20,000 nt of DNA from Raillietiella orientalis (GCA_036172245.1 JAYWIR010000002.1:7434554-7454553); one strand, 5' to 3'; positions 568 through 18,859 are shown, counted from the stretch's first letter. The notes: a model not told the origin generated them from the sequence alone. Made by a program: numbers and translations.

Positions 568-1113
568 ATGACAAACCCAAACAAAAAAATGAACCACACA
601 ATGAACATACGCATACCATCAAACGTTTCCTACTCTTGAAACCTGGGCTCCATAATAGGAATCTTTCTAATTACCCAACTGTTTACAGGCATCATCATTT
701 CTATACATTACACCCCCATACCTCATCAATCATCAACATGATGCACAACACCAACAACGGATGACTCGTACGATACGTCCACGCCCACACCGCCTCCTTC
801 TTTCTCATAGCAATCTGCCCACACACTTTCCGCGCATTAAACTCCTTTTCCTACAAAAACACTGCAACCTGAATATAGGGATTACTTCTACTCATTTTAC
901 TAATAGTAACATCGTTTCCTAGGTTATGTCCTTCCTTGAGGACAAATATCTTTTTGAGCCGCTACAGTTATCACCAACCTATTTTCCACCATCCCTCTCA
1001 TCGGACAACGCATCATCTCATTTTTATGAGGATATTTCTTCGATTCTTTTCCCTACACTTCATCTTACCCTTCGTCATAATACCCATCTCTCTATCACGC
1101 CTATTTTTCCTCC
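568..1113 (+). pseudogene. cob: mitochondrial cytochrome b pseudogene, 5' half (NUMT)
   Basis: Reads [75 protein letters not shown] with TGA=Trp. TAG at 876-878, frameshift near 918, deletions near 720 and 1032, and one heme-ligand His position now reads Arg. Confidence 0.95.
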
Positions 1114-1389
1114 GGTCGGTAGCTGCTGCTCGACCATCGAGCGCTACGCGATACTGCAGTTAAAGCCATGTCCGCGCGAGAAGGAGTTCGCATCCATGGA
1201 CCGCCCGAGAGCAGCGGGTAGGTCTGCTCCGAAGTCGCAACAGACTACGCGATCCTTCTCCCAGTCGCGCGACCCAAAGCTTCGAGCACAGCTCGATATC
1301 AGAATTCACCAAGGTGATCGGACGTCAGTTGTTGAGGTATCGCAAGTCCCCGCCTTTCGGCAGGAGACGCACCTTCGCTGACAAGATGC
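1114..1389 (-). mobile_element. L1/Tx1-like RT fragment (RT motifs 1-2), inverted relative to adjacent copy A
   Basis: Minus strand reads SAKVRLLPKGGDLRYLNN*RPITLVNSDIELCSKLWVARLG...GRSMDAN, clearly homologous to 12350-12600. Confidence 0.85.
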
Positions 1390-3348
1390 ACCAGACTGAG
1401 AGACCTGACGCTCGGCCTCTTGCTCTTGGCAGCACCTACTTTGAGTGGGTGCTGAGGGCGTGCAGGGAGACTCTAGCTCGCCTGCCGCGAGCGTGCCCAA
1501 GCACACCGTCCGCGTCAGAGTATGCAGACGAGGGCTGCCGCTGCTCTCCAAGTGCACTCCGCCTTCGGCGCTCGAAACTTTCTTCTGGTAGCTAAGCCAT
1601 GGAACAGGACTCGAGGTGAACAGGACGAAGTCGTCCGTGGTAGCAGTCGGTGCGTCGTGGCAGGGTAGCAAGACTGGATCCGCTCGGGTGTCCCCACGGT
1701 TGGGTACTTTACGTACCTCGGTGTGCCGTTGCTGGACTATTCTCCTGAGGAGGAGGCGTCCAGCTGCCTCCAGAAGGCAGAGAAGGCGATCGGCCCGTTC
1801 CTGGCTGGCAAGTTTTTCCTGCCGGAACAGGCCGCGGTGTGGAACACCTTCGTGGCCCTCCTCCTCCGCCCCCTGCTTTTTGTTTGCCCCACCAAGCGGT
1901 GTAAAGAAGAGGACAAAGGAACTCCTGAGGACCGCCTTGTAGGGCGCAGGGAGTCCCCGAGTCCGCCTGAAGCACTTGCGCGCTCCACGTCGGGACGGCG
2001 TTCTTAGCCTCCTGACGCTGGAGCGCGTGGAAATTCAGCTGCGATGGCGCACCCCCGCCATCGCAGCGAAGATGTGGAGCACCCCTTGGTGCATTCCGGC
2101 TCGCCTACTCGCCAGTCGTGTGTCCCGATGCGAAGGACTCGCGTCTTTTCTTCTGTGCTCCGGCCGGAAGATCCGAAGATGCGGCCTACTGCTCGGGCGC
2201 ATGGCAACCCTGGCGAAGGAGAACAGCTGGATGGTTTGTAGCCTCGCCAACTCCTCCGCCTGGCTGAAGGAGACTGCTGGCACCTGGGCTAAGCTAAACC
2301 AGAGGAGTGAAGATCCCATGAATTGCCTGCGTGTCGGCCCATACGCCCGCCGCACCCTGCGGGAAATACTTGAATTTCCCGCGGGTTGCACGTGGGCAGA
2401 GAGGACCCCCCTTGCTACGGCGATGCCCTACCTCCGGAGGGCGCTTAGCGGCATCCAGAAGCCGAGGTGGCAAGTCTCCTGCCGAATCGCAGGCAGGGAG
2501 AAGATGTTAAGCGGCTGGACAACAAGAGAACTGGCGGACCCACGCCACGGCCCCGAGCGTCCAGCCGAGAGGACTTTTGCGATGGGGTGAGCTGCTCGCC
2601 ATCCCCATGGATGCGCTGAAGTGGCCCCCGGTGTTGTTGGAATCGAGGATCCTGCCCCTTAAGTGGCAAGAATCGGCGCTGCTACTGCTGCATTGGGGTT
2701 TACCCTGCAACGCACGCCGCTTCCACTGGACAAGGGGAGCGGTGGATCCTCAGTGTGCCAGGTGCGGAGAGCGGGAATCGTTCTCCCACCTACTTGTTGA
2801 CTGTGCTGCCCTCCGACCCCTCTGGGAACGGTTTGGGACGACCCTCGGGCTCCCGGTGGGCAGCCAACCCAGAGACGTTCTCCGCCTTCTCTTCGTGCGG
2901 GACGCCCTTGAGCCAGCTGCAGCCGTGGCAGCACTCTGCTGTATTCGAGGCATCGTGGCGGCCTGGAGCGATACCTGCGGCGAAGGAGTGGATTCAAATG
3001 CGATGGCTGTCATCCCGTATGCTGTTCGCTTCCTGCGGAGAGCTATTGGATGGCCCCAGCTGGGAAGATTGAAGATGGACATCGAGGATATCCTGCTAAG
3101 GATGGACCCTCCTCCCAGTGGACTGTGATCCCTTCCTTTCCCCAAAAAAACTCTTTTTTTTTTGGTTTACTGGTTTATTTTTCTTTTTGTTTCTCCCCCC
3201 ATCCCCTTCCACTTCCGAGGAGAGTCACACCGGGCTGCGTCCCGGTGTCCCGGCAGGTCCGGTATTGCGTGGACGTTAGTGGGGCCTTGTACCACGTTCT
3301 GTACTGACAGATGAAGCGTTTTAATAAACGTCCCGGCGTACCCGGGTG
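1390..3348 (+). mobile_element. L1/Tx1-like non-LTR retrotransposon copy A: 5'-truncated, degenerate ORF2 C-terminal half plus 3' UTR
   Basis: Reads FEWVLR...SEYADE (YADD-like), YLGVP, RRDGVL (DGGLG-like), then zinc knuckle CARCGERESFSHLLVDC with stop at 3128. Followed by a T-rich tract, AATAAA 3323-3328 and a terminal hairpin 3332-3346. Several frameshifts. Confidence 0.88.
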
Positions 3349-3950
3349 GCATCACCGACCGACACTATGGACGACTTCGCTCCACCCACTTCCCCCTACC
3401 TTAGCCCTGTTCACCTACAGGCCCGCTGCGATAAGGACCTATGGTCTTCTCGCTCCTCGGTTGGTGGTTGCTTTCGTTTGTGAGTGTGCTGTGCGGAGAT
3501 TCGGTGGTGGGTAGGGTAGTGGGTAGTAGCCTAACACCACATCACGAACGAAGGCCGTGTGTCGATGTCCGCATCGGCCCTAGACGCTATGGGAATGTGG
3601 GGGCCCGCCATTGTAGATTTGTCCCCCGCTCCAGCGAGGGCATGGCACGCCGCGGCTCCGTTGCCTGCAGCCATGTCCGAGCAAACGATTTGCTTTTAAG
3701 AAGGCTATAATACCTTCTTCACAGGGTAGGAATCGCTTACACCTCAGATTGCGCGCGCGCCTTCCTGAAGGAGCTGCGCGCTCTCAACGTTAAACAGGAG
3801 GAGCCTCGAGCAATGACCTTTCGCAACGGGGGTCAGTACCCTGAGGTGGTTTGTAAGGAAGCCTGAACGACTGCTGAGGGACTTTTAAGAACTCCCGTTG
3901 TGATGGGAGGCAGGAGGCTGCTACCGATCATTGTGGACCGCTAGGTGGTT
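3349..3950 (+). mobile_element. highly decayed retroelement-like sequence; 3700-3950 resembles an L1/Tx1 ORF1 N-terminus
   Basis: Across frameshifts reads ARAFLKELRALNVKQEEPRAMTFRNGGQYPEVVCKE...AEGLLRTPVVMGGRRLLPIIVDR, a pattern reminiscent of ORF1 RRM-like regions. GC-rich like its neighbours. Pattern-level resemblance only. Confidence 0.3.
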
Positions 3951-4995
3951 TATCACCCCGGTGTGCCGGGGAGTTTATTATAAAAGCAAACATACAAAGT
4001 GTAGGGCCATCGGCCCTACAACGTCCTAGAGAGTTCGGAACCTATCGAGTACTGGCACGCACGCTGCCGAGCTTCGCCTCAGCAGCGGAGGGGAACAATC
4101 CCACGTAGACAGCAAAGAGCTGCTGGAACTACGGCAGGCGAAAGGGCGTTGCTCACAAAGCGGCGCTTGAACGCGTCTCTGGCAGCGTTCACTGGTGCAC
4201 CTAGGGCCGTTGCGGATGGCAACCACAAGGGCCGGAGGGCAGCACAGTCAACGAGCAGGTGTGGGAGGGATTTTCGCTCCTCGCACCTGCTGTAGTTCGG
4301 GTCCATGCCCTCCCGGGTCCAGTGAGACCAACAGGCGTTGCGCAGGATGCCTCAGTGCAACAGCAAAAGTGTCGACTCTTGCCACTTCAGGGGGAAGGCC
4401 CGGTTCTTCAGCACTGGGGGCCACTCGTGGTCTTTGTGCGAGATTCCCAGCAGCTCACTCCAGCTCGATAGTTCCTTTGGGCGCAGCGTCCGTGAGCTGG
4501 CCCGTGGTCCGACCAACTAATTTCTACCCTCTTCCACCGATCTCACATCGGACCTTCCATTGGGCCGGCTGACTACTGCCCCGGTGTTCCCTGAGATAGG
4601 GTACAGCTGCTGCTAGGGAAGTCCTTTCTGTCCACCCACGCTTGATGGGCTGCACGATGACGTCTTCCTGCAGCGAGCGGTTGTTATAAACAGAGTACAG
4701 CAGTCTCTGAGGCATCTCCTGGCTCGGTCGTTATTCCGGGTCCATGTGCGAACGGTTTCCTGTAACCAAGCGCTACCTTTCGCGGGCAGGCTGGAAATCC
4801 AGTTGTTCGTCCTGGTCAGCTTGGCCACTCGCCGAAGCTCCACTCCGTAAGGGAACAGGTAGCGTCTTAGGCCCCGCGGCATGAAGAAAGACAGTCCCGC
4901 GCAGCCGCTGGCTCTCTGAACCCAGGCGTCGTGCAGGCGGCTCGCACCACTCGGTGCTCCACATCTTCGCTACTAGGGCGGATGTCCTCCACTGG
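3951..4995 (-). mobile_element. L1/Tx1-like copy B: 5'-truncated ORF2 C-terminus plus 3' end
   Basis: Minus strand reads WRTSALVAKMWSTEWC..., LPLKWQESTLLLLH*G, YSRCEERKSLPHLLVDCAALRPLW, homologous to copy A. AATAAA at 3979-3974 and a CCCCGG/CCGGGG hairpin at 3956-3971. Confidence 0.88.
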
Positions 4996-5188
4996 TGCCG
5001 GTCGGTGCGCCGTCGACCGGACGGTCGGATCGGATCCCCTCGAGAATCCCCACGGGCGGGTACTGCAAGTACATTGGCGTTCCGTTGGGGGACTTCTGCG
5101 TTGCAGAAGTCTGATCCGGCCGTCTATAAAAAGTGAAGATGGTCGTTCCATAACGGCGAATTTCACTGGAACGAACGGGCGTCGTTGT
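4996..5188 (+). mobile_element. L1/Tx1-like copy D, left part (interrupted by copy C)
   Basis: Reads VPVGAPSTGRSDRIPSRIPTGGYCKYIGVPLGDFCVAE...ERA, homologous to VPVGSTYERQSDWIRLGISTGRCFKYLGVPLGDFCPAE in copy C. Continues co-linearly at 12791. Confidence 0.8.
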
Positions 5189-7019
5189 TTGTTACCCGGT
5201 TGCTCCGGGACGTTTATTATAACAAATCATCTGGGAACATAGTTCCCAGGCAAGGGAAACAGAAGTTAAGGGGGAGGGTTTCCCGACACGCAGGTCGGGC
5301 ATATTGAAGGCTCGGAACGGCAGGGAGGGGACAATAAATAAATAAAAATAGTGGACGGGTAGGTACAGGGGGTCTGCAGCTTCAGCCGTTCCTATTCTCA
5401 GAACCGGCGGTGAATCCTCACTTCTTCGTCGAGGTGTGGTCACCCGGAAGCCAATTCCAAATGGCAGGCTGCACTGTCGGGGATCGATGTTGGGACCGCT
5501 CGCAGCTGCAATACGTGGCGGCGGGCCCTGACAATGGCGCGGACGCAGCAGATGATTGCGACGACCGCTCCCAGAGACAGGCCGTGAAGAAGCGGCGCAT
5601 CCAGTCCATTGCGGTGTTCCCTGGATGCAGGAGCGCTGAAGACAGCCGCCGCCACAGTCCCTGGAGGGCACCGCAGTCGAATAGCAGGTACAGGAGCGAT
5701 TCCATCGCTCCGCATTTTGCACAGTTGGGGGACGCGACTCCTGCGGAAAGCAGGTGCGCGCGCTGGTTGGAATACAGACCCCAATGCACCAGCAGAAAAA
5801 CGTCATGTTTCTACCGGAGGGGGAACACAGTCGTGTGCAAGCACGGGGAAGGGACCACAAGTTCTTCGGAGGGCACCCTCAGGAGCTCGCTCCACCGAAG
5901 AAGTCCCTTGGCACGAATGCGAGGCGTGGCAGCATCTGCCAGCTCGCCGGTCCTCCAGCCGCCCAGGAGTCGGGTGTCGCCTGCGATGGCGCAGGCGACC
6001 TCCCACCTTGCCGGTAGGCCACTGTCTTCTCGTGCCCTTAGGGGAGACAGCTCTTCGGCGAGGGACGTAGAGGCCAGGCGAGTCCATTTGTCCTGGTTTT
6101 GCAACACTTCCTCCACTGGAAAGTATGGAGAAAGGTACACGCAACGGAGTTCCAAACGGGACACATCCTGTTGCGCTGCCCAGGACGATAAGGCTTCCTG
6201 CCGCCAGGCGTTAACGTTCGTCGGCCGGCAGGAGATCCACGAATGCGTTCCCAGAAGCGAGGCGAGCTGCCTCAGCGGGAAGCCGAATCCTCTCATGGCG
6301 CGCTCCGTATGCAGGTGCAACGAACGCAGTCCGTCGCCACTCGTGCAGCGCCGCAGCAGCAACCGTGCGGGAGCACACCAGGGAGTCGTCCAAAGCTGGG
6401 CGAAAGCGCCAGCATGAGAAACTGCACTAGCAGTCCGATCCGCTCCAGCGTCAAGATGCCCAAGCCCGCATCCCGACGATGAGCCGCCAAGTCCTTGAGT
6501 AGGATCCTGAACCTCGCCGGTCCCCAGAAGGCGTTCCGCAACAGGCGTTTCGCCCGGAGCTTGACCGAGTAGGGAGGGGGACAAACGGAAAAGAGGGGAC
6601 GGAGGAGCGGGGCAACGAAAATGTTCCACACGAAGGCCTGCTCCGGCAGGAGGAAACTGCGACCTTGCAACGGGCCCAGAGCAGTCTCGGCCTTGTGAAG
6701 GTAGTCCGACCGCGCTTCTGCTGGACAGAAGTCGCCTAACGGAACGCCAAGGTACTTAAAGCACCTGCCCGTGGAAATCCCCAGGCGGATCCAGTCGGAC
6801 TGCCGCTCATACGTAGAGCCAACCGGTACAACGGTGGATTTCGGTCTGTTGACGCTCACGCCCGCTCCCCGACGAATGAGCACGAAGAAATCTGCGAGAC
6901 TGGGCGCCGGGGTGGACGTGGGCAACAGGAGAGGTAGGTCGTCAGCATGGGCGGCCACGGCCGGCGTTCCCGGGCAGGAGCTCGGCAGGTTGGCCCGGGG
7001 AGTCAGCCTGTACCGTGCC
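5189..7019 (-). mobile_element. L1/Tx1-like copy C, 3' part (RT motif 5 to 3' end)
   Basis: Reads AVAAHADDL (YADD changed to HADD), FKYLGVPLG, RRDAGLG, CAKCGAMESLLYLLFDC. AATAAA at 5218-5213 and a terminal hairpin at 5195-5209. Confidence 0.9.
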
Positions 7020-10000
7020 TTTCTGTGTCTCCTCCAAACTGCAGTATCCGTTTTTCATCTCTAGAACAAACTACAAAGTATCCTATTACTGCCCCAAACC
7101 CACCTTATATTCGCCTTAGAACAACTCGTGCCTTTCGAGTAGCTATCCCCCAACGGTTGCATCCGTGCTCCCTCCGCGAAAAATATTCCGCCGAAGTGCG
7201 ATCCCTCGAAAAGATCCCCGATTCGATCGGGATACCATGCGAAGCTTCACCTGTGGCGAACGCTCCACATACCGTAGATAGCTCCACACAACAAAATTCT
7301 TTTCCAGCGATCCACAAACGAAACAACCGCTTCCCACCTCTCACTTTGCATCCATCACACACCTCCGCATCTCGACAGCACAAAAGACCTCCTCCAACGT
7401 TTCATCGCAATCCAGTACCACCTAGACTCCATCGATCTTCTAGACAGTGTTTAGCTGCACCACCACCCAATCGGACCCTTCCTGGCTATCCAGCCTCTCC
7501 TCCAACCACCGCCCGTCCTACTACCCCTCCAATTACGAACCTCCCACTCCCACCAATTGCTAAGCGGCTCTTACACCTGACAACGTCCTTTTGGTTCGAT
7601 TTCCCGTATCTCGCACACTATGCTGCATACTGCCATCCTGTCCCTGGAGAACACAAACTCTCGATGCAAGCAACACACTTCGGTGTCACTTGACGACAGC
7701 ACGCAAGCTTCCTTTCCACAAGCACAGGTCACTCTGTAGGAATTGCAACTCCGATCCTACTCAACATCACCCGCGCTTCGAACACTCCGCTCGCCCTCAA
7801 CCCCCCACGGTCTCCCTTTCTTTTCAATGTAACATTCCTAACTGTATGGCCACTTTTCCTTCTATGCGTGGATTACACATATGCGATGTCATGGCACATA
7901 CGCCTGCCAAATCAAAGCAACAAACCCCTCTCCCCATTTCGCACTTCTCGTCCGATACCCACTTTCAACCGTTTTGATGCGATAGAGACACCCGGACCCC
8001 CCACACCTGTAGCCATAGAAACAGCGCATCCTATCCCTACAACAGCCCGTACGTCCACAAGATCAGTACCTCCCATAGTTCCATCAAATTCATCTTCCTC
8101 CGAAGCCTTACAACAGCAAGAACAACCGATACGTCCGACTGACTCCCTTATACCCCTTGCACTCAACCAACAAACCTGCACCTTACGTCTACGCTGCACA
8201 ACAGGTTCTGCCAAACACCCAACATATACTACACACGAGCACACATTCCGTCCTTAGTTCTTACACTCCGATCCTCACGACCCTTCTTGCACAATCGACG
8301 TCTAATGACACTTGGCAACGTACGCTGCATACCCTCAACGAAATTATGAATACCACAACTCCGACATTCCACATACGCCCATTTAACCCTTCCACAAGGC
8401 CTACATCCTCTTCCGATGCCTTTCGCCTTACCTCACCGAAACTACTTCACTCCCTGTGTCGGCGGCGAAACCGAAAACGAGCCATTCGCACTCTTGTTCA
8501 CCCGAATCCCATTCAATTTAACGGCTGCAAATCTATGGTTCAAACTATTTTTAGTGAAAAGTTCTCAGCAAAGACAATGAACGCGGACGTACTGCAGGAA
8601 AGCCCTTTAACCCTGACTTCTTCGGAAGTGAATTGCGCAAACATCACCCCTGAAGAAGTTCTGTGGACGTTGGGGAACTCCCAAGACACTGCCCCAGGAA
8701 ATGACGGGATCCCGTACTCCCTCCTGAGGAAAGCAGACCCAGACGGATCTTGTCTTGCAGCCCTATACAATTCATGTGTCCGTCACTTGCGTATCCCTAA
8801 CGACTGGAAAACATCACGCACAGTCCTAATCCCTAAATCTGGAGCATCTGATCCGGCAGATGTAACGCAGTAATCGCTCCATAGCAATCTCCAATACCAT
8901 TGGCAAACTATTCTGCAAAATCCTTGAGAAAAGAATGCGCTCGTGGATCCTCAACAACGGAATCCTTGGACACCATCAAAAGGGATTTCTTCCCTATGAT
9001 GGCGGGCTGGAGCAAAGCTTTGTCCTGACCACTGCACTCGAGCGCTCCCGAGTGCACCACCAAGACATCGCCATTGCATGGATAGACTTTAAAGACGCGT
9101 TTACGCCCATCCCCCATCAGCCCATTCTAGACACGTTGACCGTGCTAGGGGCTGGTAGTCAGTTCCACGGAATCATTGCGGAAATGTACTCGGAATCTAC
9201 GACAACGACAGTGGCTTCGGGCGGACTTACGATCCCAATACTGATTCGTTCCGGAGTGAGCCAAGGTTGCCCCCTAAGTGGGCTGTTATTTAACATCGCT
9301 CGAGGACCCTTCATCAGAATCCTGAAACACCAACACCCCTCTATTATTCCGCTTGCTTATGCAGACGATGTTGCGCTTATTGCTAGCTCGATAAATGAGC
9401 TACAAGTGGCCGTCACCACACTGGCAGATTCGACCCGAGCTGCAAACTTGCAAATAAATACCGATGAGTGCGGCTCCTATCACTACGTAGCTTTCCCGCC
9501 ACAAGTGCGAAATTCCCCAATATCTGTGAACGGTGCAATAATTCCGTCCCTTTCCCTACAAGATACTTACAATTACCTAGGGAAACCGATTGGCTTCGAT
9601 CCACTCATGTACGACGGAAACCTTTATTGCTCATTTCAAAATCATTGCCGACTCCTCCTTAGCCCCATGGCAGAAACTGGACGCCATCAAATGCTTTTTC
9701 TTGCCATCATTTATACACGACCTTCGTCTTGGCACAAAGCCACTATCGTCATGGGCCAAGATTGATAAATCAATACGGAATACACTGAAGCAAAACATTC
9801 TCCCGCGTACCCAAGGATCATCGAACGAATACCTATACGGAAGTGTTCGCGATGGATGCCTCGGGATAATGCCTCTTGTTGAAGAAGCACCAGCAAGGAT
9901 CGCTTACTCTGCGTTCAAACTATTAAGGTGCCCGCATTCCCATGTGACTGATCTCGCCTTCTCCTCCCTTTCCGACGCCGTACATAGGAAGGCTCACGTG

Positions 10001-11321
10001 CCGCCAAACCTGGTTCTGTTCTCTCGGTTCCTCAATGGATGCTGTTCGTCCCCCTTAGACCGCCCAAGTGATGATCCCCGCACGATGTGGTCCACACTAC
10101 GGGAAGCAAGGAAGCACCTTCCCATAACGTGGAATTTTGATGACAATAATGTGACGCTCTCTTTATCCTTCCCCGAACATGAAAACCCCCCAAATCCTCT
10201 CCTTTCGACAGCAGCGACAAGTAGCACGAACGATACGTGCTCACTTTCGAGAGCAAAAACGCTTATCACTTCTAGCCAAGCCAGACCAATGTGGGATAAT
10301 AGAATGTGTAGCCTTCCACGAAGCCTCCTGCATGTGATGGATTCCGCTTTGCAGACTGGCGATTTATACACGGTGCCCGTTTGAACCTGTTATTTGTCAA
10401 CGGAAATCGGAAAACGCCTAGTGAAATTGAGCGACGCCGAAGATGTGGTTACGTAAAAGAAACATTGGCGCATGTCCTGTGTCACTGTCCAGTTTATCTT
10501 GGGACAATGTTCACCCAACGACATAACGTTGTTATCGACACCTTGTTCAAGATCCTCTCTCCTCGATGGCCCGTTGCCCAAAAGGATCGCCGAGTAGATG
10601 TGTTAAACTCCACTCTTCGCCCCGACATATTTTTGCAGAATGCGTCCACAGCTGTTATCATTGACGTTGTGATCTCCTTTGAAAATCGTACATCATCGCT
10701 ACAGCGTGCAAGCAAGAGAAACCAAAATCCTGAAGTACGCAGAGATCGAGACCGCCCTCAAGAATCAAGGCTTGCGCACCATCAACCAAGCATCTGTAAT
10801 TGGTGCGCTCGGATCATGGGATCCCGAAAATGATAAGCTCCTAAAATTGCTCGCAATTCCTCCAAGAACAATTACCGCGATCTCCAGGCATCTATGTACA
10901 GAAACTATAGAATTTTCCCGGGACATATACATCAACCATATCTCCACGCCCAACCCATCTTCGTATCCAGCAGAAAACCTCGAAGGAAACCTTCGCCATG
11001 AAGGTATGTACCAAACACACGGAGAACTATGCCCTATATCCCAAATACAAACAGGAGTCCTCCCCTATCACAATGTAGGTCCGCAAGCAGATGAAATCCT
11101 TTTGGACGGTTCTTCCGCATCTCCAATAGCAGAAGCTATTCAGGTGCTAACGTCCCTCTAAGTGCTAATTTAATACACCAACCCTCTTTACAAGTTCCAC
11201 CCTCAACAGCTGTGTATCCAAAGACAATTGAAACCTCTGTAAAATTAAACTTTACAAACGTATTGTAAAACTACCCTTTATATAAGGTACAAATGTAATA
11301 AGAATGCCGTAATAAATAAAA
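7020..11321 (+). mobile_element. Utopia/NeSL-like non-LTR retrotransposon with restriction-like endonuclease; near full length, degenerate
   Basis: N-terminal zinc fingers at 7615-7900 (CILPSC..H, CRNC..H, CNIPNC..H). RT motifs APGNDG, ADPDG..LAALYN, QKGF, WIDFKDAF, GVSQGCPLSGLLFN, LAYADDV, YNYLG. Utopia-typical SSLAPWQKLDAIK, NEYLYGS, FADWRFIHGARLN. Degenerate CCHC RRCGYVKETLAHVLCHC, RHN, RPDI..IIDV..FEN, KILKY. Ends aataaataaaa at 11311-11321. Stop at 8871 and several frameshifts. Confidence 0.9.
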
Positions 11322-11559
11322 CCTCATCACCAGCTCAAAGAAGATGCTGAAGAGCAGAGGGTTTGAGCTGTCCCCTTGCCTGATGCCCCGCCGTATGGGG
11401 ACGCCGTACACGTGGCAGCCGCTGAAAGAGATACAGCATAACGTATGGTGCCAGCAGGAGCGCAAGTAGGCGACGAGGTGCGTCGGGAGGCCTAGGCGTC
11501 CCAAGAGCTCCAGAAGGAGGTTCTGGTTTGCGCAGTCGAATGCCTTGTAGAGATCGACC
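11322..11559 (-). mobile_element. L1/Tx1-like copy C, middle part (RT motifs 3-4)
   Basis: Reads VDLYKAFDCANQNLLLELLGRLGLP...RRGIRQGDSSNPLLFSIFFELVMR and joins in frame to ARYRL...AHADD at 7018. Confidence 0.9.
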
Positions 11560-12245
11560 CTCCCCTTAAAATGGCAGGAGTCGGCTCTCCTGTTGCAGCA
11601 CTGGGGACTCCCCTGCAACGCCCGCCGACACCACTGGACCTGGGGTGCGGTGAACCCCAACTGTGTTAGGTGTGGGGAACGGGAGTCCCTCCCCCACCTC
11701 CTTGTGGATTGTGTTGCCCTTCGGCCCCTTTGGTTCCGCTTTGCCGCGGCCATCGGAATTCCCTGCGGCAACCCCAGGGACACATTGAAAGCCCTCTTCG
11801 TTGCCGACGCCCTTCGGCCTGCGGCCTCGTTAGCAGCGCTGTGCTGCCTACGCGGGATCGTCGCCGCTTGAAGCAAGGCTACGGGAGGACCTCGCGATAA
11901 AGGTGCCATCCAGCACGCCGCCGAATTTTTGAGGAGGTCGTTGCGATGGCCCCACCTGGATCCAAGCACACAGAAAGAGCTTGCCGGCATCCTGCGAAGG
12001 ATGCAGCGGCCCCAGCAGCAACTGTGATCCCTTCCCGTACCCTCCCACTTTTTCTTTTCTTTTTGCTTAGTTTTTTTGTTTCCCCCCTTCCCCCTGCTGC
12101 CGTGGTGGACCGTACCGGTCTGCGAACCGGTGACTCGGCAGGCTCTGTGTTTCTTCGTGCGTGGCTGGCACAATGGTCCAGCCACTGCACGTCTTTGTTA
12201 AAGTTTGTTTTTATAATAAACGCCCCGGCGAAACCCGGGTGAAAA
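11560..12245 (+). mobile_element. L1/Tx1-like copy F: 686-bp 5'-truncated insertion flanked by a 24-bp TSD
   Basis: Reads LPLKWQESALLLQHWGLPCNARR..CVRCGERESLPHLLVDC, close to copy A. AATAAA 12215-12220, hairpin 12224-12239, then gaaaa. TSD tcgaa[t/c]gccttgtagagatcgacc at 11536-11559 and 12246-12269. Confidence 0.92.
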
Positions 12246-12790
12246 TCGAACGCCTTGTAGAGATCGACCGCGACCGCTAAGGCGCCCGGCGTTCCCTCGT
12301 GCCGCAAGCACCGTCGCTTGTCCTTGGCAGCGGCTCATCCGGCTGCCTGGCTCTGCTGCGCAACGCGTTGCTGCAATTCGAGCCATGTTCGTGCGAAGAA
12401 GAGATTCGCGTCCATGGACCGTCCGGGAACCGCATACGTGTGCTCCGGGCTTACCAAGGACTCGGCGATTCTCCCCAGCCGCGCGACCCACAGCTTTGAG
12501 AACAACTTGACGTCCGAATTCACCAAGGTGATCGGACGCCAGTTGTTGAGCTGGCTCAAGTCGCCGCCTTTCGGCAGAAGACGCACGTTTGCTGAGCAGA
12601 AGGAAGCGGGAACATCTCCCGTCTTCCGCATCAGCGCGGAAAGGCTCAGCACCAGGGGGACGAGCTCTGCCGCGAAGCACTGAAAGAACTTCGCGGGCAG
12701 GCCATCCTCCCCAGGAGCCTTACGCCTCTTCAGGCCCGTTATGGCGGAAGACACTTCTTCCACCGTGCAGGGCAAATCCAAATTCGTGCA
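12246..12790 (-). mobile_element. L1/Tx1-like copy C, 5' part (RT motifs 0-3), 5'-truncated
   Basis: Reads LDLPCTVEEVSSAITGLKRRKAPGEDGLPAKFFQ..LLPKGGDLSQLNNWRPITLVNSDVKLFSK..PGRSMDAN..AVDLYKAFD, typical L1/Tx1 RT. Confidence 0.92.
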
Positions 12791-13630
12791 GCGTTGTCGT
12801 GGAGCGCGTTCGCGGCTCCCCTCCTTCGCTCTCTACTTTCTGTTTGTACCGTCCCACCCCAGATTGGAAAGCGGACCAAGGACCCCCTTAGAAAAGCCCG
12901 CTGGGGAACAGGGAGTTCCCGAGTTCGATTCAAAGACTTGTGTGCTCCGCGTAAGGATGGTGGACTGGGTCTCCTTACGTTGGTCTCCTTAGGATGAAGC
13001 GTCAGCTCTGGCTAAGAAGACCCGCCCCCGCTGCGAAGTTGCGGATCACGCCTTGGTGCGCGCCTGCACCACTCCTCGCCAAGAGGGCAACGGCTGCGGA
13101 GCTGTGAAGGACTTCGGTCTTCGTGGCCAGCGAGACCAGTTTGAGGCAAGGTGGCCTGCAAACTGCGCGAGGTGGTTATCTTGGTACAGGACAACGGCAG
13201 GATATCCCGCCTACCCGTTAACTGCACTGCCTGGCTCCAGGAGTCGGTCACAGCATGGGGAAAGATCCACGGCTAAAGCGAAGCGGAATACGCCTGCCTG
13301 CCTCCGGAAAGGAAGGTACGCTCGGAGGGTAGAACGCGTGCGACCCACGCAAGCTGCTGCGGTCATCGTTCACCCCCCTTGCTCCAATGCAGCCCTCCTT
13401 ACGAGAAGCAAAGGACAGCGATATACCGGCGAGATGCGAAGTGCCCTGCCGCATCCAAGACAGCAAAAAACCTTTTAAGAGCGTGCACAACTCGGCAGCT
13501 AGCGGACGCTGCGACCCCGGGTGTACCGCCAAAAGGACTGCCACGCTGGGGCGAGCTGGTATCGCCATACCTCCGGAGGAGGCGAAGTGACCCCCAGGCT
13601 GGATTCGGACGGTGCGTTTTTACGCTCTTC
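12791..13630 (+). mobile_element. L1/Tx1-like copy D, right part (3' end missing)
   Basis: Reads WSAFAAPLLRSLLSVC..RVRFKDLCAPRKDGGLGLLTL..TPWCAPA..IPARCEVPCRI. Homology fades near 13630, so the end is approximate. Confidence 0.8.
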
Positions 13631-13813
13631 CCTCCCCCTACCCACCTTCCTCAGAGCGGAACTCGCCGGGCAGACTGCCTGCTATCAGGAACGCCTCCAG
13701 GATTCCTCGGACTACAGCGGGACGCAGGCCCTCCTTTGGACCGTCGAGCGAGGACGAGCGCGCCGGCCGGCGGCCGCACGGAGGCGAAATGAGCATCTTT
13801 GGAGCACGGGGAA

Positions 13814-13833
13814 CGCGCGCGCGCGCGCGCGCG
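13814..13833. repeat. (CG)10 microsatellite
   Basis: Perfect alternating CG over 20 nt, read directly. Confidence 0.95.
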
Positions 13834-14626
13834 ACCCAACTTCCAGGTTCGGAACCGGTTCGTACGCGAACCGGCCGCAAAGTGGCTGGCTCGCGGCAAA
13901 GGTCGCTTGCGTGAGACGCGTGCCGATCGCGATCCGCACTTGCGAGAGTTCCTTCGGAAGGAAACGCACCGCCAGTGCCTTGGCACATTCCGCTGGGTCG
14001 AAGAGGGAGCCAAAAAAGGGTCTTTGCAAAGGAAAGCGCACTTTGAATCGGTGCCCGCAAAGACGGTTCAAGTGCCGAGCTGCTTTCCGGATGTCCGAAA
14101 GCCCGGGGTTCTTACCATCTTCGAACGCTTTCCTCGAGCTTGTTCGGCTATCGCCAAAACCAGTAGTCGGCAAAAAAAAACACCCAATCTTGGAAACCAC
14201 ACTTTCCGAGTAACATATAGCAATTTATTTCGCACGCTTTTTGGTGTGAGGAAAAAGTGATGAAATTTTTTCTTCTTCTTTATAATCACGGAACGATGCT
14301 ATGAAACCAAATGCATGGGGGGTGGGGGTGGGGGTGGGTGAAAAACACAGACGATCACGATGTGCGCAGACAGCCGCTTCCCTGATATTCTCTCAGGTCC
14401 ACTTCCTCTTCCTTGGCAACGCGAGCGTCATTCGCGTGTGGCACTATGACTGCTCGCACGATGCCACCTTAGCACATCTTCTCTGCTTAGTGTCTCGCCT
14501 CAATGTTTTGGGTGCTGGTCTTCCGATGGACTACGCCTCTGAAGTGGCTACAAACCCCATTTCAATAGAGTACCGGATCTCTCAAAACGTTCGGGTAAAT
14601 GCATCCAGGAGGAGGCATTTCGCTGA

Positions 14627-17600
14627 TCAGGAAACCGCTGTTGTTCTGTGATTGGGGTTTTCCATCCACTGAAGGCTTGGAACGTAGGCTGTGTTACGAA
14701 AACCCATATCTGCTACGATCGGTTGTTTCGGATCAACCACTCTGGACTTCTTTTTCCCGGACAGTGAACTCTCCGACTCGCTGCTGCTTGTATCACTTTC
14801 GCTTTCCTTTTCCTTGGATCCGCGCTTCCTCTTTGCCGCCTTCTTCGTTACCGAGCTTCTCTTCTTCGTCTCTTTCGACTTCTTCGCCTTTCGCTCAGCC
14901 TTTTTCTTTTTGTGTCCACGTTTCACACCATCTTGACCCACGCCTTCGGCTTCCTCTTCTTTGTTGACCGTGGACTTCTCCTTCCTTCTCTTCTTGCTTT
15001 TTCGTCTCTTGTCATCTGGCTTCCTCTTGCGCTTTTTCCTATCTCCTGTTTTTCGCTTAGCTGCCACGCCATTCGGAGCCAGGTTCTCTTCATCCGACTC
15101 GTCAGAACTCTCTACATCCCCGGATCTTTGCTTTGCATTCTTCTTTTTCTTTCGGGATTTCTTTTTCTGTTTTTTATTCTTTCTTGACGTTTTTTTGTGT
15201 GCTCCCTCCGATTCCGAATCTAAACAAACATGAAACAAGAACAAGAGCACCCTTTTAGAGCAAACCTGGGCTGCCGGTGCTGCTGCTGCTGCTATTACTG
15301 CCACTGCTGCTACTACTGCTGCTGCTTTCCAGATTTTGAATCAACTCTTGAAGTTGCGGCTTCACGACAGCTGTTGGTTTGGTCTGCTGCTTCAAGTGCT
15401 CACGGAGCTCATCGCTGAATCGACGAAAACATCGCAGTTGGAAAAGCTGGTATTTGTTTACTTACGTCAGGCCACCAAGCCCAATGGAGGTGAAAAAATT
15501 GATGACGAAGCGCGTGTTTCGAGGATTATCCCGTGGCAACAACCCAACAAAGCACTCCTGCAGTGTCCTGGTGTCAACGTGAAACTCAGGAAAACAAATG
15601 AGTTCTACTCACGGATCCTGGCACCGCTCGTGGAGACGTGCTAGACCCATATCCTCTGCTAGTTCTTGGAACAGGATTTTGATAAAGATGCGACTGGATG
15701 AAGTGGTGTCATCCTCATTCAGCTTTACGTGAGTCAATACAGTCCACGGCAAGGCATCTGTGTACAACAAATGAGCAAAGAACTTGGCAGCATTCCTCAG
15801 CTTGTTGTTATCAAATCGATGGATAGTGTCATAAGCATCTTGGAAAACCACTTCGAATTGCTCCTGGTACACTTTATCCAAATCACAAAATCTCTGCAAC
15901 CGAAATGCAAAGTACTGAACAACTTTCCATTCTGCTTTCTCACCTGGGCAAGAAGTCCAAAGAACTTTTCATAAGTTCGCATCTGAGCACAGCAATCGAG
16001 AATCATATGACAGAGTTCTTTTTCTTGGCCAGGACGCATCTCCATCTTAAGAAGCTTATGAGCACATTCCTCAAAGTCCAGGCTGGATTGGATTGTCAGA
16101 TAAATGGTGCGCCGTAAAGACACCAATTCAGTCTCTGTGCTATCTAAGATGTCCTTGTTCTTTCCTAGAACCAAACTGTGCGATGATGTTTCAAAGTGGA
16201 CATGCACACTTGCCTTCCTCATTTTCTTCAGAACCTTCTTCCTCAGATCCACCTTCTCCCTCAGAACTCTCTTCAGAGCTGCCCTGATCCAGGATTTCCA
16301 TTCTCATGGCACGGTACCGCTCTTCATTTTCTTCAAAAGCGGGATCCAAAGTAAAGATATCTGCAAAAATCAACCATCGACGATGCAAGCACTGCACAAC
16401 TCCAACCAACTTAGAGTTTCCTGTCCATTAGTCACATCGTCCAGAGTTGTCAAATGAGTGAACTGATCTTCCTCATCAACAAGATCAAGTTCCTCTATGA
16501 TGGATGGATTGTCTTTGAAACCATCCTTCCTCACAGCGAAAATAACTTCGATCATGTACTGATACTGCATACAAAGATAACAAAAGAACAAGAATGCAGA
16601 GACGAAACACACGTACCCGTCGATCCAAATTTGCCTCATGCAAGATATTACGCAACCTCTCAAATATGGCATGAACTCCCTTTGGAGATACCTCCATTAA
16701 CTTCATGCCACATTCCTTCAGGAAACCCACTGCAATCTCCACAGAATCCTCAGTAGCATTTTCCAGAAGCAACGTGAGAATTTCCAAAGCCAACACCTCA
16801 TGTGCCTGGTGCAAGAGTCACTCCACATCTACACACTGCCCACCACTCCCTTCCACTTACTACTTGCTGATTTATCAAATGAGCTAAAAATCGAGTGGCT
16901 GACAAACAATTTGCTTTGTTGTTCAATCTATAGCCCCGTTTAAACTGAATGATGAGTCGATGGAGCAGCAGCTCCCCAATCTGTGGGAACTTTGTGTTTA
17001 TAATGGCCACCAGTGAAGCATACACATGTGTAAATGTGGGAGAAGCAGCTTGAGCTTGCATAATTGCTCTGCATAAAAGACCACGACCACGAATCAGATT
17101 CTCTTGGAAAAGTTCTTCCTTTACTATGATGGTGATGTTTGATACATTCACTTTATTGATAAGTCCATTCAGTGACTTTTTCAGAGCTTCCCACGCCAAT
17201 CTTTGATATGCTGGACTGGAATAAAGCAACAACACATCACCAACTGCACTCTGCAACTGACCCCAAAATCAAAATAAAGGAAAACTGCACGACTTCTACA
17301 AGGTACAAATCGTGTCCAGTACATTCAAAGCAACCAACCTGGATTTATCTGTTATTTCTTTCTGCATCATTTTCAGCTTTGCTGGTGGAATGTATGCCCC
17401 TCCAGTTTTTAAAGTCAGAAAGTCATCCTTTGGCTTATTTGCATCGACATTTCTTACTGCACCATGGGTCTCTTCTACTTTGCCATCCTTGTTTGCATCA
17501 GGATCTTTATCAGTATGGTGCTTAGCATCAGACTTTCCCATTTTTTCCATTTCAACATGTGCTTGTGCATCACAACTTTTTTCAGCACCCTCAATCACCT

Positions 17601-18285
17601 TGCTTTCATTTTCCTTCACGTGTGCCTGATTGCTATCTGATTTGCAAATTTCCTTTGCATCATGGCGTCTTTCAGAATAGGAGTCTCTATCAGCATCACG
17701 ACGTCTCTCTGCATTGCGGTCTCTGTCTGCATCATGGCGTCTCTCTGGGTTGTGGTCTCTATCAGCATTACGTAGCCTCCCTGAGTTGTAGCCTCTATCT
17801 GTATCACGGTGACGTCTCTCTGAATTGTGGCTTCTATCTACATCACGGTGATGATGATGTCTCTCTGAGTTGTGGCTCCTATCCACATCACGATAATGGC
17901 GTTGTCTTTCTGAGTTGTGGCTTCGATCTGCTTCACGATGTCTCTCAGGGTTATGGTCCCTATCCAAATTACGACGCCTTTCAGGATTGTGGCCTCTATC
18001 TGAGTGGCGACGTCTCTCTGGATTGTGTCCTCTATCTGAATCACGATGCCTTTCAGAATTGTGACTTCTCTCTGACTTGTGGTGTCTCTCAGAACCATGA
18101 TGCCTTGTTACATTGTGATGTCTATCCAAGTCACATCTTTCAGCATTTGGTTCCTGATCGGAACTTTTTTTCCCAGTTAGATTTTCTCCTGCACTGGAAT
18201 CCTTTCCGGATACAGATGTCCTTGCCGAATCATGACACTTATTCTTATCAACAGTTTCGGCCAAATCCTTTGATGGAGAACACAT
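14627..18285 (-). CDS. CWC22: pre-mRNA splicing factor CWC22 (nucampholin / let-858 homolog; MIF4G + MA3 domains), 10 coding exons
   Basis: Conserved blocks [119 protein letters not shown]. In-frame exons: 18285-17339, 17215-16861, 16805-16617, 16564-16411, 16360-16214, 16164-15944, 15893-15613, 15567-15466, 15414-15266, 15219-14627. The start codon and the final exon end are less certain. Confidence 0.96.
17656..18126 (-). repeat. coding tandem repeat of about 12 units of ~36 nt (DRxHNxERRxxx) in CWC22 exon 1
   Basis: Units include [63 protein letters not shown]; frame is preserved throughout. Confidence 0.9.
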
Positions 18286-18859
18286 AGCTGATACCCAGAA
18301 CCAGTGGGACTTGCTTAACAATTTGTTCACACCGTATCTGTCCTACTATCCTGGTAAGAAACATGAACCCTTAACAATACATCTACACCAAGCAAACACT
18401 GCACAAAGGTCATGCCATGTTTTTCTATGGATGAAGAACATCGTAGAAGCAGAGAAAAAACTTGCAGACTCTGCTGCTGCCAAATCCAATGAACTCTGTT
18501 GCTAGAAATTGCTCTGTTGAGGATCAGAAAAAAACTACTCAGGACAAAGGTCAAAACTTTTAAACAAATTCCAACGTATCTAAATTCTGAGCACATAATA
18601 ACTGTGTAAGAAAAAAAAAAAAAAAAATGAGCGCTCGCATCCGGCTTCTTCCTGTCGCTCAGCTACTTCAAGGGCGACCCGTTTGAGCTGTGGTTTGCAA
18701 GAAAATGCTCTTCATCTACTGACAACTCTCCTTGAGCTTTGCTCACTGAGAAGACAACTCTGAGGCAAATGTGTGGTAGCGGAAGGGACTTCATGGGCTT
18801 GGAAAGGAGTAATTCAGCATTGAGCGTGAACGGCAAAAGTCTCTGCGTGCTAACCGAAG

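Follow-up and report, generated by a model that had tools for sequence, protein, structure and literature searches.

We analysed a 20,000-nucleotide stretch of the Raillietiella orientalis genome (GCA_036172245.1 JAYWIR010000002.1:7434554-7454553; hereafter the window, with positions counted from its first letter), in which five insertions of one family of retrotransposons that lack long terminal repeats (non-LTR) preserve four 3' ends. The 3' untranslated regions (UTRs) at these ends carry a module of three hairpins, HP1, HP2 and HP3, which is a selected RNA structure, and the family that bears it is, as judged from its proteins, an L1-clade long interspersed nuclear element (LINE). The best-supported function of the module, we infer, is recognition by the element's own ORF2p. 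That it is a cis-acting handle by which ORF2p seizes its own RNA and sets the start of target-primed reverse transcription (TPRT) comes near to an even chance without quite reaching it.

The four ends, belonging to insertions A (plus strand, ~3350), B (minus, ~3944), C (minus, ~5184) and F (plus, 12245), were located by self-comparison and by tblastn with the family's own reading frames, and in translation each comes after a C-terminal domain with a CxxC-x7-H-x4-C knuckle. The UTR alignment and an unbiased list of hairpins agree on one order in all four UTRs, namely a pyrimidine-rich tract followed by HP1, HP2, a U-rich stretch containing AAUAAA, and HP3. In that list, which was limited to perfect Watson-Crick stems, HP1 was recovered in three of the four UTRs (not in B), HP2 in three (not in A) and HP3 in all four, always in the same order and accompanied by a few 5-bp extras. 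Perfect stems of at least 8 bp numbered five across the four UTRs, against a shuffle mean of 0.069, and none of 2000 shuffles reached five; per UTR, 0.012-0.023 such stems were expected and at least one was observed in every case. Among the five is a low-complexity pairing of A7 with T7 in copy A, and the count of 13 stems of at least 6 bp is likewise inflated by six register variants of the A-run/T-run pairing of that copy.

HP1 had been the subject of an original prediction from this DNA, which placed hairpins with a constant CUGCGW loop in A, C and F; we found them exactly there, in the 3' UTRs (Table 1). Local folding, with 200 dinucleotide shuffles for each copy, gave -14.0 kcal/mol in A (0/200 shuffles as good), -10.3 kcal/mol in C (2/200) and -9.5 kcal/mol in F (4/200), and the proposed comparison with shuffled UTRs thus came out in favour of these three hairpins, equally good ones almost never arising by shuffling. 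A weaker version had also been assigned to B, at 4055-4069; the sequence is present one base away, but its fold (-7.0 kcal/mol) is indistinguishable from chance, because 90/200 shuffles fold as well. B has a 10-bp hairpin just upstream of this HP1-equivalent position. The outer helix predicted around HP1 in A and F proved perfect in F and carries one T.C mismatch in A, and it is unsupported in C. The hexamer CTGCGW taken by itself shows no enrichment in the window, with 25 matches where 21.3 were expected. In the alignment produced with MAFFT (A4), both sides change in 4 of the 8 HP1 pairs.

A separate observation concerns copy A, where the 5' arm of HP1 (3227-3234) also pairs with the 3' arm of HP3 plus the TG(G) that follows it (3342-3349). 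The minimum-energy fold of the whole UTR of A prefers this long-range helix, the complementarity is absent in C, and the pairing may be either accidental or an alternative or switching fold.

HP1 is neither the sole element of the tail nor its strongest, as HP2 covaries more. HP2 is a stronger hairpin than HP1, with a stem of 8-12 bp placed 13-30 nt upstream of AATAAA, and its consensus combines a variable stem, in which G-G/C-C and the closing C-G are kept, with a short N-(A/T)-T loop. In an alignment of the HP2 segments (A5), 84.2% of cells were paired, against 65.2 +/- 6.1% in shuffles (0/500), the covariation score was 0.500 against 0.162 (0/500 shuffles), and both sides changed in 6 of 11 pairs, a number reached by 6/500 shuffles. 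In A4, which takes HP1, the outer helix and HP3 together, 82.7% of cells were paired, against 73.1 +/- 2.6% in column shuffles (0/500), with a covariation score of 0.333 against 0.121 (0/500), and sliding the partner by 1-3 columns lowered pairing to 27-51%; two apparently broken HP3 columns in this alignment are artefacts of unequal loop lengths. By our own count over the pair tables of A4 and A5, at least 12 separate double changes preserve pairing. RNAalifold, run on its own alignment, predicted HP1 and HP3.

How far the copies have diverged can be read from their coding parts. Between copies, the C-terminal domain showed a ratio of nonsynonymous to synonymous divergence (dN/dS) of 0.14-0.34 at a saturated dS of 1.6-1.9, which indicates that the divergence arose in functioning lineages, and the reverse transcriptase (RT) piece common to A and G gave a dN/dS of 0.29. 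The structured part of the UTR retained 0.52-0.61 matches per base, compared with 0.34-0.38 for shuffled pairs (maximum 0.50), over comparisons in which about two thirds of synonymous sites differ. The copies are therefore separate lineages and not local duplicates, as shown by the saturated dS, by inversion junctions that differ, and by the target-site duplication that F has of its own. Since the stems stay paired through double changes despite saturated dS, and since such stems are rare in shuffles, the three-hairpin module is a selected RNA structure; the argument that a constant loop on compensating stems marks a selected RNA element is borne out in three diverged copies under purifying selection.

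These data also bear on the idea that the hairpins have no function, and are either inherited DNA palindromes renewed by one-step mutational processes (short template switches, for example) or chance products of GC-rich sequence. It draws on the small number of sequences (four only), on the richness of the UTRs in CCGG, through which short stems arise easily, and on the individual hairpins that perform poorly, that is HP1 of B, HP2 of A, and HP3, which alone is not clearly better than shuffles. It fails to account for stems of at least 8 bp in every UTR and a total that no shuffle set reached, for hairpins that keep their order and matching places despite saturated synonymous sites, or for the pairing-preserving double changes, and we consider it very improbable.

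HP3 has the form CCCGG-N4-6-CCGGG and starts 2 nt after an invariant AAUAAAC in all four copies. Beyond it, a T(G) and a short A-rich run follow in F (TGAAAA), C and B, while A has none; insertion F ends in ...CCCGGGTGAAAA. A search with the tail motif TAATAAAC-N2-CCCGG-N5-CCGGG, allowing up to 3 mismatches, returned four matches in the window, one per 3' end, where 0.01 would be expected by chance, and the tail is thus confined within the 20 kb to the four LINE ends. In F, a target-site duplication of 24 nt places the element's end four A's past HP3, which implies that reverse transcription began at the boundary between UTR and tail. Because the nicked target of F (...TTCGA), a single case, is not T-rich, annealing of the primer to poly(A) alone explains this start poorly. 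The true 3' end is the usual position of the signals of stringent LINEs, and HP3 is the hairpin found there. On its own account, the nicked target of F is unlike the TTTT/AA preference of human L1.

The same features could instead belong to a module that serves 3'-end formation and RNA stability, and not template choice. HP3, lying between AAUAAA and the cleavage site, would then act with an upstream U-rich/UGUA context and HP1/HP2 to give a poly(A) site that is efficient even though no downstream element is present, a retrotransposon being unable to take one along, and it might in addition shield the 3' end from exonucleases. Such a role would suit the invariant AAUAAAC with HP3 2 nt later in every copy, the end of F at ~24 nt after AAUAAA, which is a normal cleavage distance, and an HP3 stem that is conserved and does not covary, the behaviour to be expected if it formed part of a composite processing signal. 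One published account has vertebrate L1s ending in AATAAA and poly(A) after poly-C/poly-T tracts like the present ones (PMC5381506). Processing leaves unexplained, however, the constancy of the HP1 hexaloop on stems that change, ~90 nt upstream of the signal, and the start of reverse transcription in F no more than four A's into the tail. Nor are canonical poly(A) sites known to need such hairpins, and we rate a role confined to 3'-end formation and stability as unlikely.

Several results weigh against recognition of the module by ORF2p, or against the structural case on which it builds. All covariation counts derive from four related sequences in one 20-kb window, for which shuffle controls may overstate significance, and the A5 segments were picked around hairpins already seen, which favours the slid control there. 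Minimum-energy folds of whole single UTRs (z-scores of -0.51, -2.38, -1.79 and -2.81) contain HP1 in only one of four cases, that of C, and competing pairings occur in A (the HP1 5' arm with the HP3 3' arm) and in F (GACCG-tac-CGGTC). The distance of HP1 from the 3' end, ~110-125 nt, exceeds that of the functional stem-loops in tails of the UnaL2/ZfL2 type. B has no convincing HP1, and the local fold of HP2 in A is no better than shuffles (124/200); each could be post-insertion decay or a true difference between lineages. HP3 does not covary, its stem being simply conserved, and its local folds are weakly better than shuffles, with 2 to 69 of 200 as good. Finally, the evidence for a short tail comes from one dated insertion, F.

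The assignment of the family to the L1 clade rests on comparisons of its RT. The RT piece of G matched residues 443-571 of human L1 ORF2p with an E-value of 1.8e-19, against 1e-5 for R2. P0013, a public protein of 619 aa with 63% identity to the RT of G, which served us as a coordinate ruler, matched human ORF2p residues 395-773 at ~1e-39, against 7e-17 for R2. The CCHC knuckle CxxC-x7-H-x4-C is present in A, F, B and C, and in A it lies on the same strand as, and contiguous with, the C-terminal half of the RT; the C-terminal domain of this copy also matched Pfam zf-RVT with an E-value of 2.7e-4 and 22 bits, under the 27.5-bit gathering score. Insertion signatures are of the L1 style, comprising 5' truncation, 5' inversion and, in F, a target-site duplication. 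No match to an APE-type endonuclease was found in the frames scanned, all five copies being 5'-truncated or 5'-inverted, and none of them retains ORF1 or the linker between endonuclease and RT. The family had been described as L1/Tx1-like, and the L1 part of that label agrees with the best RT matches, whereas the Tx1 part finds no sign of site-specific insertion. The 3' flanks of A, B, C and F all differ (four junctions only) and F sits inside the RT gene of another copy, so that Tx1-type site specificity is unsupported.

Were ORF2p the partner, the module would act in cis on the element's own transcript, the protein gripping its RNA through the hairpins and the start of TPRT being fixed at the boundary between UTR and tail, in a stringent or semi-stringent mode of L1 template choice. 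Within HP1, which in A and F is carried by the outer helix across an asymmetric internal loop, the constant loop would be the likeliest candidate for a sequence-specific contact, and helical anchoring and spacing would fall to HP2 and HP3. A probable further role of HP3 is in shaping the poly(A) site, with cleavage and polyadenylation predicted 1-2 nt after it. A more specific version holds that this is an L1-clade lineage outside green plants with stringent 3'-end recognition, in which the CUGCGW loop of HP1 is the specificity determinant and HP2/HP3 set the cDNA start at the first tail bases; so detailed a claim we put forward as possible and rather doubtful.

A constant loop on variable stems marks a hairpin recognised by a protein and does not name that protein. 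The hairpins might accordingly bind a partner other than the RT, either the ORF1 protein, which along with the endonuclease-RT linker is retained in no copy of the window, or host factors engaged in export, localisation, translation control or evasion of silencing. Priming accords better with the location at the extreme 3' end and with a cDNA in F that starts right after HP3, and the documented partners of LINE 3' stem-loops are ORF2 proteins (PMC4176376, PMC10830416). Another partner therefore seems quite improbable to us.

Recognition by ORF2p has precedents of several kinds. Stringent LINEs need a 3' stem-loop bound by ORF2, and ZfL2 ORF2 proteins bind their cognate stem-loops (PMC4176376); a 3' stem-loop with compensating stem changes, a feature of the stringent type, is present in our family. 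Hairpin-bearing stringent LINEs of the L1 clade have been published for maize/sorghum and Chlamydomonas (PMC3472496). The closest likeness is to the maize/sorghum LINE1-1_ZM group (Ohshima 2012, PMC3472496; review PMC3747384), which is of the L1 clade and has a 3' hairpin with a compensating stem and a conserved loop, taken as a sign that the template is recognised by sequence in a clade commonly held to depend on poly(A) only (PMC3472496). In the maize/sorghum hairpin the loop is UCU and the 3' flank a conserved CGAG; it is found within ~50 nt of the end, and SINEs (short interspersed elements) share it (PMC3472496). The present family, by contrast, has a CUGCGW loop and three hairpins.

UnaL2, ZfL2-1 and ZfL2-2, of the L2 clade, also have a stem-loop in the 3' tail (Hayashi et al. 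2014, PMC4176376); its structure and loop are recognised by the ORF2 protein that the element encodes and are required for retrotransposition (PMC4176376). They belong to another clade, their tails end in short tandem repeats after a single terminal stem-loop, and binding is proven (PMC4176376), whereas our family has AAUAAA with an A-rich tail and a constant-loop hairpin more than 100 nt from the end. SART1, of the R1 clade, ends in poly(A) yet needs a structured 3' UTR, which shows that stringent recognition does not preclude an A tail; it differs in clade and in being telomere-specific (cited in PMC3472496).

The original prediction had contrasted stem-loop recognition with mammalian L1, said to rely on poly(A). 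As a sole mode this is dated, since human ORF2p engages a template stem-loop beside the poly(A) tract, and a stem-loop in this position helps to define the start of TPRT (PMC10830416), as proposed here. The surfaces of the protein that hold this stem-loop are the C-terminal segment, the RBD and the thumb, and once the stem is unpaired the initiation sites become heterogeneous (Thawani et al., PMC10830416). The stem-loop predicted for human L1/Alu 3' ends combines a loop of 5-7 nt with a stem of 8-10 bp that is bulged at 4-6 bp from the loop (Grechishnikova and Poptsova 2016, PMC5135761), a geometry that HP1 with its outer helix resembles. In the human system, however, the well-supported stem-loop is that of Alu, the L1 3' UTR being stated to be without a similar one, and recognition is largely shape-based (PMC10830416), whereas the present element itself bears the hairpins, one of them with a loop of constant sequence. 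Pyrimidine tracts are described for frog and lizard L1, and those at the start of our UTRs resemble them; the available text of that study reports no conserved 3' structure and calls for experiments (PMC5381506).

Table 1 Features of the L1-like insertions and their 3' tails. RT coordinates follow residues of P0013; shuffles are numbers as good out of those made.
Feature	Position	Strand	Details
Insertion A	1100-3350	+	L1-like copy with 5' inversion; tblastn, P0013 as ruler
A, inverted RT part	1100-1381	-	P0013 residues 217 to 118
A, direct RT part	1425-2368	+	P0013 residues 295 to 611; then C-terminal domain 2511-3125, stop 3126-3128
3' UTR of A	3129-3350	+	pyrimidine-rich tract, HP1, HP2, AATAAA, HP3
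Outer helix of A	3212-3217 with 3251-3256	+	one T.C mismatch
HP1 of A	3227-3248	+	acaccggg-CTGCGT-cccggtgt; 8-bp stem, loop 3235-3240
HP2 of A	3279-3295	+	degraded: GTGG/CCAC plus G.U and C-G pairs, loop CTT, one G.A mismatch
AATAAA of A	3323-3328	+	
HP3 of A	3332-3346	+	CCCGG-cgtac-CCGGG
Insertion B	3944-5147	-	sense on minus strand; 5' inversion
B, inverted part	4995-5147	+	P0013 residues 367-417
B, direct part	5012-4647	-	P0013 residues 496 to 615
B, C-terminal domain	4501-4094	-	in-frame stop present
HP1-equivalent of B	4068-4054	-	ggca-gcgtgcg-tgcc; TGCG kept, stem only 4 bp (GGCA/TGCC)
HP2 of B	4000-4020	-	TGTAGGGCC-gat-GGCCCTACA, 9 bp; -15.8 kcal/mol, 0/200 shuffles
AATAAA of B	3979-3974	-	
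HP3 of B	3971-3956	-	CCCCGG-caca-CCGGGG
Tail of B	3955-3944	-	TGATAAACCACC
Insertion C	5184-6994	-	sense on minus strand; P0013 residues 313 to 588 at 6991-6165; C-terminal domain 5960-5583
HP1 of C	5299-5282	-	CCCGAC-CTGCGT-GTCGGG
HP2 of C	5231-5249	-	CTGGGAAC-tat-GTTCCCAG, 8 bp; -12.4 kcal/mol, 0/200 shuffles
AATAAA of C	5218-5213	-	
HP3 of C	5209-5195	-	CCCGG-agcaa-CCGGG
Tail of C	5194-5184	-	TAACAAACAAC
Insertion G	11316-13600	+	5'-inverted copy of the L1-like family; F nested inside
G, inverted part	11316-12781	-	P0013 residues 307 to 56
G, direct part	12743-13261	+	P0013 residues 422 to 584
Insertion F	11560-12245	+	686 nt, 5'-truncated; C-terminal domain (one in-frame stop) and UTR
Target-site duplication of F	11536-11559 and 12246-12269		24 nt, 23/24 identical; blastn 95.8%
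Outer helix of F	12097-12102 with 12136-12141	+	perfect
HP1 of F	12114-12131	+	ACCGGT-CTGCGA-ACCGGT, plus U.G pair 12113/12132
HP2 of F	12157-12190	+	12 bp, one-base bulge; -24.5 kcal/mol, 0/200 shuffles
HP2 core of F	12161-12168 and 12178-12185	+	GTGGCTGG/CCAGCCAC
AATAAA of F	12215-12220	+	
HP3 of F	12224-12239	+	CCCGG-cgaaac-CCGGG; then TGAAAA, then the target-site duplication

The GC-rich blocks between ~1100 and 13600 are insertions of this one family, nested with other repeats (Table 1). The C-terminal open reading frame (ORF) of A is intact and encodes 205 aa. C is a plain truncated copy from P0013 residue 313 onwards, its 5' side cut at or near an unrelated LINE, here called D. On the P0013 ruler, three of the five insertions (A, B and G) are 5'-inverted, with junctions that all differ; 5' inversions with varied junctions are the pattern attributed to twin priming in mammalian L1. 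Target-site duplications were looked for around A, B, C and G and none was found. The target into which F inserted translates as the VDLYKAFD motif of the RT of G (minus strand), so that F lies antisense in the RT of a copy of its own family. No usable 3' tail is present in G itself; the stretch at 13631-13721 looks like a weak UTR remnant, which was left out of the analysis because its alignment to the UTR of A was marginal (score 35 against a null of 22.8 +/- 2.9, null maximum 31) and HP1 is not kept in it. The presence of RT on the opposite strand beside a C-terminal domain had prompted the idea that A, G and C are DNA-level duplicates of one rearranged copy, which we rejected because the P0013 ruler resolves three separate 5' inversions with different junctions; duplication without selection is also countered by dN/dS values well below 1.

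LINE D (~6938-11335, plus strand), which separates C from G, is lower in GC and has frameshifted ORFs. It contains an RVT_1 domain at 8866-9765 (E-value 3.7e-23), its closest solved relative is the Bombyx R2 RT (1.5e-19, against ~1e-11 for L1 ORF2p), and its AT-rich 3' end has no tail hairpins in common with the L1-like family. Positions 1-1117, adjoining and apparently cutting the inverted 5' segment of A, are A+C-rich (GC 0.40, GC skew -0.61), with a weak match to cytochrome b (Pfam PF00033, E-value 0.0055, frame 900-1160); the stretch reads like a decayed insertion of mitochondrial DNA, in which translation by mitochondrial codes meets several stops. Just beyond the truncated copy G, 13813-13874 holds a run of (CG)n together with a hairpin of 8 uninterrupted base pairs, CCGGTTCG-tacg-CGAACCGG (13855-13874), both unrelated in sequence to HP1-HP3. 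An imperfect tandem repeat with a 36-nt period and 9-12 units occupies 17631-18128 (minus strand) within a 348-aa minus-strand ORF (17296-18342), in a low-GC, presumably host region; this ORF had no Pfam match. A tRNA scan of the window found none.

We then searched for relatives of the tail and of the domain that precedes it. Rfam cmscan over the whole window at E <= 1 returned nothing in the UTRs and one unrelated weak hit at 2527-2626 (minus strand, E-value 0.31). The C-terminal domain of A had no match at near or longer lengths in a word-indexed protein library, and 11 hits at E <= 0.001 in an exhaustive representative library, of which only P0001 was close (87 aa, 52% identical). A three-row alignment of the domain gave 112 pattern matches in metagenome contigs and 29 in viral contigs, with none confirmed in either set. 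Scanning with the tail pattern returned 54 metagenome, 2 viral and 45 prokaryote-genome loci; none of these 101 showed the family protein or any UTR likeness beyond the pattern by tblastn and blastn, and we therefore treated them as chance matches. P0013, P0001 and the RT alignment yielded no locus in viral contigs (one of these searches gave one confirmed stretch but 0 loci), and the protein atlas held generic RVT_1 and zf-RVT clusters only. Word-based searching of the open-access literature found no description of a CUGCGW-loop hairpin or of the three-hairpin tail. The kind of element, a LINE 3' tail signal, is already known, and the CUGCGW three-hairpin tail is a new instance of it.

How a LINE enzyme chooses its own RNA is a long-standing question, and elements are usually divided into stringent ones, which use a tail hairpin, and relaxed ones, for which poly(A) suffices and of which L1 is the type case. 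The idea that recognition by a hairpin may extend into the L1 clade is itself not new, and the evidence presented here comes from four copies in one window. An L1-clade family with AAUAAA and an A tail, yet also with three compensated hairpins, would blur this division, and would agree with human ORF2p structures that show a surface for a template stem-loop. At ~140 nt, the module would be a natural RNA compact enough for assays of binding and TPRT by an L1 enzyme from outside the mammals, and it supplies a model with which the source genome can be searched for partner SINEs. Should the more specific version, with the HP1 loop as specificity determinant, be true, the family would stand in cis as a natural counterpart to the Alu stem-loop anchor on human ORF2p, and would be a living example of the ancestral state from which the poly(A)-only L1 of mammals is proposed to have relaxed.

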